This document shows, one piece after another, positions 3,387 through 37,485 of a stretch of 64,000 nucleotides of DNA. The notes under the pieces were generated by a model. It was given only the letters and a program-made list of their open reading frames with translations. It made no database searches and was not told the origin of the DNA. The stretch spans positions 64,001 through 128,000 of the IMG/VR virus record IMGVR_UViG_3300012983_000033, one strand, 5' to 3'. Origin of the DNA: a virus. Taxonomy: Duplodnaviria; Caudoviricetes. Position 1 is the stretch's first letter. The number at the start of each line of letters is the position of its first letter. A program made the position numbers and the translations under genes.

Positions 3387-4160
3387 TTATTCCCAACCAT
3401 AAATTTTTTGGAATGAATAAGGCTGCGGGAGTGTCATCTGTTTAAAGCGATTAGCCTTATGTTTTGTCTTAATAAGTTCAATTACCTTTTCACTGTCGCA
3501 CTTACCAGTCCTGATATAAGTATCTAACTGTTCATAAGTAAAACCAAATCTATCCTCATCCGTCTGACCACAGAGTCCGTCAGAAGGAGTTTTGTGTGTA
3601 AGGAAATGCGGCAATCCAAGAGCATCACCGATGGCTACAACCTCGCTCGCTGTATAATTGGCGAGAGGTGCGAAATCACCAATATTATCACCCCAACGGG
3701 TTGAATAACCGATATATGATTCAGAAAGATTATCTGTGCAGACCACTCGACCTCCAATTGACTGGGATACAAAGTAAAGAACCGTCATACGAATACGGGG
3801 AGGTAAATTGATTATTGCCTGCTCAGAAGGCTGAAAGGCTCTTCCTGCTGTGGCAGCAACTTCTAAACCAAGAGCCGACACAACGGACTCTATATTTACT
3901 ACATATCGATCAATGTCAAGATAATTACAAACATTAAAAGAATCCTTAATATCTTTTTGTTCACCATTCGGCATTAAAACTCCTACTACTCTATCTTTAC
4001 CAAGAGCTTCTACGCACAAAGCTGCGGCGACCGTGGAATCCTTACCACCGCTAATGCCAATAACAGCATTGCAATCTTTCCCGTTCTCTTCAAACCAATC
4101 TCGTATCCACTGTACGATACGGTCTTTATGTTCTACTGCATTAAAATCTTCTCTTACCAT
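3387..4160 (-). CDS. nadE: NH3-dependent NAD+ synthetase
   Basis: GISGGKDS PP-loop, RIRMT, N.SE..IGYSTRWGD, PSDGL...TDE motifs. Confidence 0.92.
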   Translation of the reverse strand: MVREDFNAVEHKDRIVQWIRDWFEENGKDCNAVIGISGGKDSTVAAALCVEALGKDRVVGVLMPNGEQKDIKDSFNVCNYLDIDRYVVNIESVVSALGLEVAATAGRAFQPSEQAIINLPPRIRMTVLYFVSQSIGGRVVCTDNLSESYIGYSTRWGDNIGDFAPLANYTASEVVAIGDALGLPHFLTHKTPSDGLCGQTDEDRFGFTYEQLDTYIRTGKCDSEKVIELIKTKHKANRFKQMTLPQPYSFQKIYGWE

Positions 4161-7431: not shown

Positions 7432-7778
7432 TATACATCACTTCCCCACAATTTATCTTCAAATTCTCCTGCGAACCAAAGGCGATAAATATTATGACCC
7501 TGCCGCAGTTCACGATTCGTTAAATCTTTGAGTAACTTCCATTCCCCTCTTTTATTGCGAAGATATATTTCAAATGTGTCTCCATTCCACGCAAATTTAT
7601 CAGCATTTAAGAGAATAATTAAATCGTTTGTATATATTGATACATTCCCAACAAAGGACTGTTGAAGATATTGTGCTTGATTAAAGCAATAACTTGCCCC
7701 TTTCGTGGCATCTACCCAAAACGCCCTACTCGGTGCAGTATCGTGAGTGAGTATACCATCTTCAAAATAAACTTTCAT
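7431..7778 (-). CDS. Hypothetical protein
   Basis: ORF, translationally coupled. Confidence 0.65.
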   Translation of the reverse strand: MKVYFEDGILTHDTAPSRAFWVDATKGASYCFNQAQYLQQSFVGNVSIYTNDLIILLNADKFAWNGDTFEIYLRNKRGEWKLLKDLTNRELRQGHNIYRLWFAGEFEDKLWGSDV

Positions 7779-7946
7779 TTAATTCCTCCTGTTTCATTCT
7801 CTCATAAAGTATCTTCATACTAATTCCACGACATCTTACTTGATTTGGGCAAATTATACAAACAGAGGTAATGGTAGTAAGTTTATTTGTTTCTAACAGA
7901 CACGCTCGCAGCTCTTCATCTGTGGCGTCTATATTCGTTGTAAACA

Positions 7947-8255
7947 TTAAACTTCCCTCCAACCATTTTTCTGTATAATTGCTCTCATATTCGCCACACC
8001 GACAGAATTCATACTATGAATTCTGATTGGATAGTTGCGGCCGGTCTCTTCGAGCCAGTCAAGAAGTTTTATATAGTCGCCGCCATACTGAGCATATTCA
8101 CCAGCATCGTGGTCTATGTCAATGAGTTCAATTGTATAACAATATTGAATGTGTGGATCTATTAAAAAACGCTTAGCCTCATTAACACTTTTACACCAAA
8201 TATATCCCTCAGGTGCGGGTCTTACATCGTCAATCCAAAGCTTCAATTTCTTCAC
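7947..8255 (-). CDS. Cyclic-phosphate-processing receiver-domain protein
   Basis: KLWIDDVRPAP, DIDHDAG and IHSMNSVG motifs. Confidence 0.75.
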   Translation of the reverse strand: MKKLKLWIDDVRPAPEGYIWCKSVNEAKRFLIDPHIQYCYTIELIDIDHDAGEYAQYGGDYIKLLDWLEETGRNYPIRIHSMNSVGVANMRAIIQKNGWREV

Positions 8256-12206: not shown

Positions 12207-12305
12207 ATTATTTTCCTTTCTTTTCTAACTTTCTATATATATTATAACAAAAATTTGAAAAAAAATCAAATAACCCTCTATTTAAGTAGAGGGTTATATC
12301 TTTAA

Positions 12306-12560
12306 TTATTCATTAACTAAGTGACAGTTAAAAGAACTTACGAGCCAAACTTTTCCTTCGGTATCTGTGATCTGAAGCTGTTCTCCGTCATAATCACGCC
12401 ACTTAGCAATTTTAATGGTCTTTGAAGTGCCGTCAAACATATCAATAATAGCTGTATCATATTCATAGTTGAGGTCTACAATTTGTTTATTAAATCCACA
12501 TCCTGTGAAAAGACAAGCAATAATCAATACACCGAGTATGATAGCAATAATTTTCTTCAT
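12306..12560 (-). CDS. Lipoprotein
   Basis: Signal peptide with lipobox LFTGC. Confidence 0.75.
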   Translation of the reverse strand: MKKIIAIILGVLIIACLFTGCGFNKQIVDLNYEYDTAIIDMFDGTSKTIKIAKWRDYDGEQLQITDTEGKVWLVSSFNCHLVNE

Positions 12561-12572
12561 TTTTATTTCTCC

Positions 12573-13043
12573 TTATTTCATCAATTCATTGAGGACTTTC
12601 TGTGCAATTTTCATATCGCAATTGTAAGTTTTAAGAATTGGCATTACGGTCTTCATAATCTTACCCTTATTTTGCATAGTAACAGGTATTTCATTTTTAA
12701 ATAAAATTTTATCAATGAGATTAGTAATTTTCGTTTCGTCAGTAATCAACTGGGGAGCATACTCATTTACAACTGTCATATTATACTGATATTCTGCCTT
12801 ACGTGTTGCATACTGTTCCGTATCAGGGCAGGTATCAATCATTTCCTGAACTGTTTTCTTGTACTTTGTCAAGACTTCATTTACAAGTGCGTCAGTAATT
12901 TCAACTCGTGTCTTACCTGAGGTTGAAGCCTTATCAATTGCCGCTACAATGTCTGCCAACACAGAGCGGCGGGCTTTATTACCACTTTTAAGTGATTCAT
13001 TCATATCATTTTTTATTTTTTCATATATCGTCATTATAATCAT
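12573..13043 (-). CDS. GatB/YqeY-domain protein
   Basis: EKIKNDM...LKSG.K.R..VL, Y.P.L, KGKIMK.VM pattern. Confidence 0.75.
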   Translation of the reverse strand: MIIMTIYEKIKNDMNESLKSGNKARRSVLADIVAAIDKASTSGKTRVEITDALVNEVLTKYKKTVQEMIDTCPDTEQYATRKAEYQYNMTVVNEYAPQLITDETKITNLIDKILFKNEIPVTMQNKGKIMKTVMPILKTYNCDMKIAQKVLNELMK

Positions 13044-31353: not shown

Positions 31354-31443
31354 TGGCAGCCCCGTAGGGATTCGAACCCTAACTAACGCCCTCAGCAGGC
31401 CACAGATTTAGAGTCTGCTGTGCTACCATTACACCACGGGGCA
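31354..31443 (-). tRNA. Amber suppressor tRNA(CTA), Gln-like body, long variable arm
   Basis: GCAGA-CT CTA AA-TCTGT; D-arm identical to that of tRNA-Gln; T-arm TAGGG-TTCGAAT-CCCTA; G73-CCA. Confidence 0.9.
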
Positions 31444-32289: not shown

Positions 32290-32933
32290 TTGCACCTTGA
32301 AAATACATACTAGACGAACCTTCGTTCTACTGTCAACATTCTTCAACCATATTCAGTCACAGAGGAGATGACTGTGAGCTAAAGGGAGCTACCCTTTAAC
32401 TTTTTCACCCCAGAATTGATCGTTGCACCGAAGTGCGCTGGACCTAAATCAATTCATAAAACTCTGACGGGATTGCTTACCCGCACCTTTCACCTACAAT
32501 TCACATAATTTTATAGTCTTTTACTATAACTATTAATTAATTAATCCTAACATTCGTATTGCTACGCCTTCGGCTACTTGGAGTTGCTTGCATATGTTAT
32601 ACACGAATTTCTTCGCTTCACGGCATTACGGATTATTGGTATTTCACAAGGTTTGATACAGTCACCAGCTAAACCCTAACTTGGATTCGGCACTTGCTAT
32701 TAACAAATGCTTCTATTGTTCCGTCCATACGCATACTACCTTTGATTGCAAATGCTGAAGTGCTATACCTTGGTTTGGGAGTTCATCCTCTTCCACTAAA
32801 TTATCACTAATTTAATGACAGTCCAGAATTGTAAAGTATCCTTTATTTCTTCTGCTGACCTTCCGGTATACCTCAGCACAGTCTGCGAAACTGTGTTTGC
32901 ACTGAGTTGTTAGTATATATTTTCAAGGTGCAA
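32290..32933 (-). ncRNA. Large structured RNA, ROOL-like
   Basis: ~645 nt without a credible ORF, closed by a 23-bp terminal helix, many internal hairpins, own promoter at ~33012-33041; family name by recall only. Confidence 0.6.
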
Positions 32934-33379: not shown

Positions 33380-33451
33380 TTATACTACTGGGAATTTAAC
33401 CACAGCTCTCCTCCTTTAAAGGGAGGCGAATTTTCGCTATTCGATAGTATA
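33380..33451 (-). tRNA. Degenerate tRNA-like cloverleaf, anticodon TTA
   Basis: TATACTA/TAGTATA acceptor stem, GAAT/ATTC D-stem, CCTCC-CT TTA AA-GGAGG; aberrant T-arm, no CCA. Confidence 0.5.
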
Positions 33452-33459
33452 AAAGCATA

Positions 33460-34350
33460 TGGTAAGTAAAAACGAAAACCTGAGAATACAGTTTTCAAAT
33501 TGCTACGCCTTAATGACCTTATGTGTTAGTCACTTTTCCACTTCCTTTTGGGAAGTAGCGCTCATGCCTGCGTTTTTACATCCCCAGCACAAGGGACGAG
33601 GTCCGCTAATCTACCTTTAACGAGTACTTACTCGATTATCACTCCACTATCAACCTTGCGGGCTGTTCGCGGTTGCTACACCACTATAGATTCGTTTCAA
33701 TCAAATACAAGATGCTTGTGACACCTTATATCCCGTATTGCTTACCACTACGGGCTTAAGACACTTTTCGTTACTCGCAATAACAGATTTTTACTTTTAA
33801 CATACCTTCCATTTAATAGTATTGCTCTACCTACTGAGCTACCCGCGTATGTATGGGAGATAGGTGCTTACTATCTCCGCGTGAATAATAATTGGCACGC
33901 GGGGTGGGACTCGAACCCACGCTAAGTTAATTTGACAGAAGACAGACTGTTATCGTAGTTTCCATACCTTTTGAGCACAGAAATGCTACCCGCCTTCAAC
34001 ACTTTCCTTGGCTTCGTACTCGTGTTTCCTAAAACCACCGTAGCAGTAATAGATGGAAGCCGCCCTTGATTGCTAATCTCGAACTTATCTTCCTGCGGTT
34101 TACCATACCTTATTCTATCCTTTTTGCGTTGAAGCCAGTCCCTTGCGAGAACGGTCGTTCTCAGACATTTGTCCATTGATCGACATTTTCACTTCATCAA
34201 GAATAAGTTAAGACATAGGGGATATATCCGTAGTGGTCTTTTCAACCAACTACTGGTCCCGGCGCGCAGTGCTTGGGGTACCACTTTCGTGGCGGAAGTT
34301 TGTCAGTATCTTCCTTTCGTTCCCTTACGGGAAGTTATCAGCCAAGCCTG
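33460..34350 (-). ncRNA. Large structured RNA, GOLLD-like, with central permuted tRNA halves
   Basis: ~890 nt rich in GNRA/GCAA-type hairpins, own promoter at ~34410-34439; tRNA 3' half at 33893-33920 and 5' half at 33822-33848; ends approximate. Confidence 0.6.
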
Positions 34351-34446
34351 AATATTTCAATAAATTACCGAAGTAATTTATGTTATATTTTTTTTCAGAT
34401 TATGTATATATTATACATAAAATTTTTGAAAAAATCAAATTTTTAA

Positions 34447-37408: not shown

Positions 37409-37485
37409 TGGTGGCGGAGGTAGGACTTGAACCTACGACCTTCGGGTTATTGAGCCCGACGAGCTACCAACTGCTCTACTCCGCG
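37409..37485 (-). tRNA. Initiator-type tRNA with 8-nt anticodon loop (CTCAATAA)
   Basis: fMet body CGCGGAGTAGAGCAGTTGGTAGCTCG, TCGGG/CCCGA stem, unpaired 1:72. Confidence 0.8.

Follow-up and report, generated by a model that had tools for sequence, protein, structure and literature searches.

Background

GOLLD RNAs, described in 2009, are large and form cages made of RNA only, and we know of no function for them. Here we report on a GOLLD RNA encoded at positions 33477-34352, on the minus strand, of a stretch of 64,000 nucleotides (nt) of phage DNA (hereafter the window), which comprises bases 64001-128000 of a complete, 139,671-base pair (bp) virus record with direct terminal repeats (IMG/VR record IMGVR_UViG_3300012983_000033). 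Comparison with its relatives leaves very little doubt that this GOLLD RNA carries, in its linker, a tRNA fold in permuted order that is under selection. The fuller reading, in which the same RNA is in addition nicked by RNase P within that fold, is one that we favour with some reserve.

Permuted tRNA-type RNAs are known from other systems. In two-piece transfer-messenger RNA (tmRNA) the 3' piece of the acceptor stem, together with CCA, is encoded upstream of the 5' piece; the intervening segment is removed and the pieces stay paired. The permuted tRNAs of algae mature via a circular intermediate, through the eukaryotic/archaeal splicing endonuclease, into contiguous tRNAs that take part in decoding. 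Two-piece tmRNA was reportedly described by Keiler, Shapiro and Williams in 2000 and is said to be present in alpha-proteobacteria, some beta-proteobacteria and cyanobacteria, and the permuted algal tRNA genes were reportedly found by Soma et al. in 2007 in Cyanidioschyzon merolae and some green algae.

As to GOLLD itself, ordinary tRNAs or a pseudo-tRNA in the variable linker (J13/15) have been published, the linker being A/U-rich in other members, and cryo-electron microscopy places the linker in the cage interior with the 5' and 3' regions forming separate domains (bioRxiv 10.1101/2024.12.08.627333). Another RNA of relevance is YrlA. In Mycobacterium smegmatis it has a closed 7-bp acceptor stem and serves as a substrate for RNase P in vivo and for M1 RNA in vitro; it gains CCA and its two halves remain together. 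YrlA RNAs with shorter acceptor stems are not cut, and the full 7-bp stem was named as the RNase P determinant (Chen et al. 2014, PMC4201824).

A GOLLD RNA with a permuted tRNA module in its linker

The identification as a GOLLD-like RNA, proposed in an initial annotation of the window, is borne out by a search with the Rfam covariance model RF02032, which in a permissive scan matched positions 33477-33998 (minus strand) over model positions 1-416 (149.1 bits, E 2e-41). This is 0.9 bits below the gathering cut-off of 150 bits; the score is lowered because an insertion of approximately 100 nt in the linker is costly, and five homologues with approximately 80% identity score between 152.8 and 156.3 bits, i.e., above the cut-off. 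Approximately 875 nt of the window GOLLD (34352 to 33477) are conserved with the homologues and comprise a variable 5' domain, a variable linker and a conserved 3' domain. The tRNA module aligns to the part of the model that represents the unstructured linker, model positions 63-114.

In the order of transcription the module consists of a variable loop, a T arm, the acceptor-stem 3' strand followed by NCCA, a spacer, the acceptor-stem 5' strand, a D arm and a 5-bp stem at the place of the anticodon arm (Table 1). The sequence elements listed in the initial annotation were all found on the minus strand where it had placed them. Its statement that the D-arm segment equals the phage tRNA-Phe over 23 nt is correct, whereas the T arm differs from that tRNA. 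That the module would lack an anticodon arm was a mistake, since a covarying 5-bp stem with a loop of 9-13 nt follows directly after the D arm. ARAGORN made no tRNA call between positions 33451 and 34447, and at the module the Rfam tRNA model (RF00005) gave only partial matches (12.5-13.2 bits, E 3.8-6). The same arms are obtained when the window sequence is folded by itself at minimum free energy. Judged from the order and pairing of these parts, the module is a whole tRNA fold whose chain is broken between the anticodon stem and the variable loop, and the spacer connects its natural ends.

Covariation and selection on the fold

The family was found with two patterns derived from the GOLLD 3' domain; its members are on viral and metagenome contigs and in a single GTDB genome, a Bacteroidales metagenome-assembled genome (MAG), and every family member having enough upstream sequence carries the permuted module. 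Including the window, the sample comprises 20 contigs from 16 datasets with 14 distinct module sequences. Two alignments were used, one a plain MAFFT alignment of 13 sequences (A1) and the other a model-based alignment of all 14 (A3). In A1, 98.6% of the cells are paired and the covariation score is 0.469, values that none of 500 shuffles reached; for A3 the corresponding figures are 99.7% and 0.482. As controls, the pairing partners were slid by 1-3 columns, which gave 35-52% paired cells and covariation scores of 0.06-0.13.

The acceptor stem had been predicted to form across the reversed halves, and this was confirmed by the homologues: eight different versions are present among the 14 sequences, all Watson-Crick paired (98 of 98 cells in A3 and 91 of 91 in A1), with compensatory changes in six of the seven pairs. 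The T stem is likewise fully paired, the D stem is invariant across the 14 sequences, and in the stem at the anticodon position 95-99% of the cells are paired (for compensatory changes in these stems see Table 1). Moreover, two tertiary pairs covary and are consistent in 14 of 14 sequences. Pair 48:15 is C:G in eight and U:A in six, with the switch seen in at least two backgrounds, while the pair that joins the D and T loops (56:19) is C:G in nine and G:C in five; the latter switch may have happened only once, within one clade. Residues U8, A14, T54 and A58, which make up the elbow contacts U8-A14 and T54-A58, are invariant. The acceptor stem of the module was not found in any resident tRNA (at least 2-3 of 7 positions differ), and gene conversion from resident tRNAs was rejected as a source of the covariation since no resident tRNA has the same acceptor stem. 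Taken together, the compensatory changes argue that selection keeps an L-shaped fold including the elbow pairs.

When the two halves were rejoined in silico, ARAGORN called a tRNA of 77-81 nt in 12 of the 14 modules with default settings and in all 14 at a relaxed threshold. Four different "anticodons" were reported at default and five at the relaxed threshold, an inconsistency due to the size of the loops, in which no anticodon triplet is conserved. The module is not a decoder.

Table 1. Features of the GOLLD RNA and its linker module, in order of transcription (positions refer to the window)
Feature	Position	Strand	Remarks
Promoter-like site (TTGATT, 17 nt, TATAAT)	34410..34438	-	Upstream of GOLLD; 10/12 consensus matches
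GOLLD 5' domain (variable, outside Rfam model)	33999..34352	-	Full-length alignment with 9 homologues; mean column conservation 0.86
Hairpin, RF02032 positions 1-62, final helix before linker	33936..33998	-	Mean conservation 0.94
Variable-loop equivalent ACUUAGC	33921..33927	-	Last base 33921 = tRNA position 48, matches D-loop position 15
T arm, 5-bp stem and 7-nt UUCGAGU loop	33904..33920	-	100% paired; 2/5 pairs compensatory
Acceptor-stem 3' strand	33897..33903	-	Pairs with 33842-33848
Discriminator G and encoded CCA	33893..33896	-	Internal in primary transcript; CCA invariant 14/14
Spacer, 44 nt	33849..33892	-	Hairpin 33856-33878; invariant A(-2)U(-1) at 33850-33849
Acceptor-stem 5' strand	33842..33848	-	Pairs with 33897-33903; predicted RNase P site 5' of A33848
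U8, A9 and D arm (4-bp stem, 8-nt loop with G18 G19)	33824..33841	-	Stem invariant; 78% of columns invariant
Position 26 and 5-bp stem, 11-nt purine-rich loop, anticodon-arm position	33802..33823	-	Stem-loop 33822-33802; 4/5 pairs compensatory
GOLLD conserved 3' domain	33477..33801	-	RF02032 alignment to position 416; mean conservation 0.90; includes hairpin loop 33586-33592

Occurrence of the module

A blastn search with the locus against the INPHARED phages gave no match, and an exact 25-mer from the 3' half had no match in viral contigs. Through a neighbouring protein 80 related phage loci were identified. Sixteen of the 50 records searched have a GOLLD RNA, all of them of other subtypes that have A/U-rich linkers without a tRNA-like element. 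Generic patterns of the type "T arm, CCA, spacer, D arm" yielded nothing but ordinary tandem tRNAs. With our own covariance model the module was confined, among the loci searched, to this GOLLD subfamily, the next-best matches (<40 bits) being tandem-tRNA junctions; among 150 sampled Bacteroidales genomes it was present only in the MAG contig already found. The five relatives that were scanned with Rfam are all located within tRNA arrays, and one of them is also near a ROOL RNA.

Some individual loci deserve mention. Locus L235 shares an identical module with L232, but in its 5' and 3' domains it is similar to L239; modules and GOLLD backbones therefore seem to recombine. A low-coverage metagenome contig (L233:1650-2782, minus strand) has the module and the GOLLD 3' domain without the usual 5' domain or pre-linker hairpin. 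Directly upstream of its T arm there are D-arm-like and anticodon-arm-like elements, and the 5' acceptor strand belonging to these elements is only partly complementary; the contig represents either a duplication intermediate or a recombinant/chimeric contig. In L226, which has a GOLLD RNA of another subtype, a T-arm-like element follows an anticodon-arm-like hairpin in normal order and without CCA, approximately 240 nt upstream of the hairpin motif 3531-3555; this is probably a pseudo-tRNA in the linker and not permuted.

Comparison with described systems

With the published tRNA-bearing GOLLD RNAs the window RNA shares the RNA class, the 3' domain, the variable 5' domain, the tRNA-array context and the point of insertion. 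In those RNAs, however, the tRNAs have the normal order and could be released by processing, whereas here the order is permuted and neither half can leave GOLLD; unlike in ordinary GOLLD-linker tRNAs, the anticodon loop is also oversized.

YrlA (RF02553) is the best match among small RNA families, with 35 bits (E 1.9e-6) for the window and 28.6 bits for L233, the cut-off being 69. The order of T arm, closed acceptor stem and D arm is the same in YrlA and the module, and the 7-bp acceptor stem is shared specifically with M. smegmatis YrlA, which is an RNase P-cut, CCA-bearing two-piece RNA. The differences are that the anticodon position is occupied in YrlA by a helix of the RNA's own two ends and in the module by a local hairpin, that CCA is added in M. 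smegmatis YrlA and encoded in the module, and that the module sits within an RNA of approximately 900 nt. A YrlA-type closing helix formed by the flanks was considered and rejected, the local hairpin covarying there instead, and the closing stem of the minimum-free-energy fold is not kept in the relatives. The complete phage genome gave no match to PF05731 (Ro60/TROVE), and the module has no Ro-binding stem, its flanks being the GOLLD domains. The statement in the initial annotation that no description of such an arrangement is known was too strong, since tRNAs in GOLLD linkers and an RNase P-cut YrlA (PMC4201824) have been published. In a literature search that did not reach the original GOLLD paper and Morgado 2020, we found no paper that links GOLLD to YrlA in this sense, or to a module that is permuted or tRNA-like.

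The module has in common with two-piece tmRNA that the 3' piece of the acceptor stem, with CCA, lies upstream of the 5' piece, and differs from it in having a full D arm and an arm at the anticodon position. No evidence for tmRNA identity emerged: ARAGORN called no tmRNA, a tag reading frame was not found, G3:U70 is present in none of the 14 sequences, and the beta_tmRNA model gave 10.4 bits (E 1.3). As in the algal permuted tRNA genes, the 3' half is upstream of the 5' half and a short intervening sequence follows right after the acceptor 3' end. In contrast to these, the module lacks a usable anticodon loop and its outer ends run into the GOLLD domains (approximately 430 nt and 325 nt), and maturation of the C. 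merolae type is for these reasons unlikely.

Processing signals and the spacer

Bacterial RNase P recognises end signals such as those present here in combination with an acceptor stem of 7 bp that stacks on a canonical T arm. In the module, NCCA and A(-2)U(-1) are invariant (14/14), and the identity of N73 follows pair 1:72, being G with A:U and C with G:C. For comparison, 139 genuine tRNAs were taken from the arrays of the window and of loci L220, L224, L229, L242-L245 and L249; their flanks are very uniform, with T at -1 in 126, AT at -2/-1 in 104 and an encoded CCA in 133. Because the module keeps the 7-bp stem, A-2 U-1 and encoded NCCA like the genuine tRNAs of the phage, we infer a cut by RNase P, and lean towards a nick in the GOLLD transcript immediately 5' of A33848.

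The spacer varies between 17 and 46 nt in the relatives and, with a mean conservation of 0.70 and only 7% of its columns invariant, is less conserved than any other segment. Its hairpin, noted already in the initial annotation, is real and shows compensatory changes in 3-5 of 7 pairs in the relatives; it is missing in one clade, where the spacer is 17-20 nt, and replaced by a different hairpin in L243. By contrast, none of the relatives has the CACGCGG segment that had been suggested to compete, as a switch, for the 3' acceptor strand. The spacer-hairpin loop (33864-33870) and the loop of a hairpin in the 3' domain (33586-33592) are complementary to each other over 4-5 Watson-Crick pairs (33864-33868 with 33586-33590), and the two may form a kissing loop. 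Members with a different 3' loop have the spacer hairpin absent or replaced, with L235 as an exception; this correlation is two-state and confounded with phylogeny (shuffle p 0.01-0.03).

In the course of events that we propose, GOLLD would be expressed from its own promoter inside the phage tRNA array as a transcript of about 880-920 nt, and cleavage by the host RNase P 5' of A33848 would give a two-piece GOLLD RNA with its 5' and 3' domains held together by a tRNA-shaped joint. Next, the spacer would either be shortened in the direction of CCA or, should its hairpin dock on the 3' domain, be retained; trimming is less certain than the nick. By analogy with the cage structure known from cryo-electron microscopy of other members, the joint would be located in the cage interior as a tethered tRNA body that tRNA enzymes could not release. 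In that case the covalent link between the two GOLLD domains may be dispensable.

Alternative explanations

Several considerations weigh against a nick in the linker. Salmonella Typhimurium YrlA and Deinococcus radiodurans Yrn1 are tRNA-like yet uncut by RNase P (PMC4201824), and therefore a tRNA-like shape by itself is no guarantee of cleavage. The packing of the cage could shield the site, such "inhibited storage" has been proposed for embedded tRNAs (PMC12990946), and the invariant AU and CCA could in part reflect shared ancestry in A/T-rich DNA. Furthermore, the compensatory upkeep of the spacer hairpin and the complementarity of its loop suggest that the spacer is part of the working RNA rather than a segment to be discarded. 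These points lead to the possibility, to which we give clearly less credence than to the nick, that the module is an uncut tRNA mimic with the acceptor stem closed by the spacer and the spacer hairpin docked on the 3' domain. Like most YrlA RNAs, it would then serve as an internal tRNA-shaped handle or decoy, e.g. for tRNA-modifying enzymes, tRNA-directed nucleases or ribosome-associated factors. Such a mimic agrees with a spacer hairpin that covaries, has a loop complementary to that of the 3' domain and is present in correlation with the sequence of the latter, as well as with the YrlA likeness (most YrlA and Yrn1 RNAs being uncut) and with a linker inside the cage, where access may be limited. 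It offers no obvious need for an invariant NCCA right after the stem or for the A-2 U-1 of real tRNAs, the clade with the shortest spacers is without any spacer hairpin, and the full 7-bp acceptor stem is present, which is the determinant of RNase P cleavage according to Chen et al.

A stronger version of the nicked GOLLD, put forward in the initial annotation, holds that the free CCA end is aminoacylated after processing in a tmRNA-like manner. The encoded NCCA is invariant, the upper part of the fold (acceptor stem and T arm) is tRNA-like, and Chen et al. raised the same possibility, without data, for cleaved M. smegmatis YrlA (PMC4201824). Yet the acceptor stem varies freely and has no conserved identity element, G3:U70 is lacking throughout and no G-1 is encoded; likewise, the loop at the anticodon position has no conserved triplet, neither a tag reading frame nor a tmRNA call was obtained, and no CCA-adding enzyme was found in the phage genome. 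Charging is on these grounds quite improbable. Still less probable is a functionless remnant, in which two tandem copies of one tRNA would have decayed at their outer ends so that the inner halves mimic a permuted tRNA. The module likely arose by tRNA duplication, and tandem copies of one tRNA do give the same local pattern: all matches of 48-55 bits to our own model in Bacteroidales genomes are junctions of such copies. By chance, 7 complementary pairs were present in one of 120 ordinary tandem junctions (L185, Ser and Phe), and L233, with decayed D and anticodon arms upstream of its T arm, could be an intermediate. A relic would gather mismatches, however, whereas in the 14 sequences the helices and two tertiary pairs are kept by compensatory changes while the spacer drifts. 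Finally, an assembly rearrangement at 33849-33892, which the initial annotation had named as a possible source of error, has a negligible probability and is excluded by the presence of the same order in the 20 contigs from 16 independently assembled datasets (IMG/VR, ENA, GenBank whole-genome shotgun data and a GTDB genome).

Implications for GOLLD

A selected tRNA fold that cannot be released from the linker ties GOLLD directly to the machineries that process and bind tRNA, and would add a permuted tRNA-type domain from a bacterial virus to two-piece tmRNA and M. smegmatis YrlA. Since the fold keeps the cutting signals and CCA, simple predictions follow with respect to the RNA ends, RNase P cleavage and an L-shaped density in the cage interior. 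What such a domain might do is a matter for speculation: that unreleasable, tethered tRNA bodies with a free CCA after the nick, inside the cage, capture or titrate a tRNA-binding host factor or become charged is rather unlikely in our estimate. If true, candidate targets would be a tRNA-directed defence nuclease, a synthetase, EF-Tu or ribosomal sites, with many bodies per assembled cage, and the tethered tRNA would represent the first concrete molecular function for GOLLD.

Genomic setting

ARAGORN predicts 30 tRNA genes on the minus strand of the window, and GOLLD is flanked by tRNA-Arg(UCU) and a tRNA-like gene at 33380-33451. The latter (minus strand) is a tRNA missed by ARAGORN that scores 46.6 bits with the Rfam tRNA model and lies 25 nt past the GOLLD 3' end; its T arm is unusual, its gene does not encode CCA, and its processing would set the 3' end of GOLLD. 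In this region, promoter-like sites of the kind present upstream of GOLLD (Table 1) are no more numerous than expected from shuffled sequence; in the relatives a TGTATAAT-type box is present at the matching place. An open reading frame of 84 amino acids over the 5' domain (33922-34176) was rejected as protein-coding, with many stops in the relatives.

Elsewhere in the array, a tRNA with an 8-nt anticodon loop (caat) is located at 37409-37485 (minus strand), and a tRNA with anticodon CUA at 31354-31443 (minus strand), designated "Pyl" by ARAGORN, hints at TAG recoding. A full-length ROOL RNA (RF03087, 318.6 bits) is located at 32296-32930 (minus strand), approximately 550 nt downstream of GOLLD on the same strand, and a single phage therefore encodes two cage-forming RNAs. 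Locus L243 likewise pairs ROOL (7558-8229) with GOLLD (12269-12780), and the tRNA array of the same phage also has a drum RNA (RF02958, 46.4 bits, cut-off 43) at L243:2541-2667 (plus strand).

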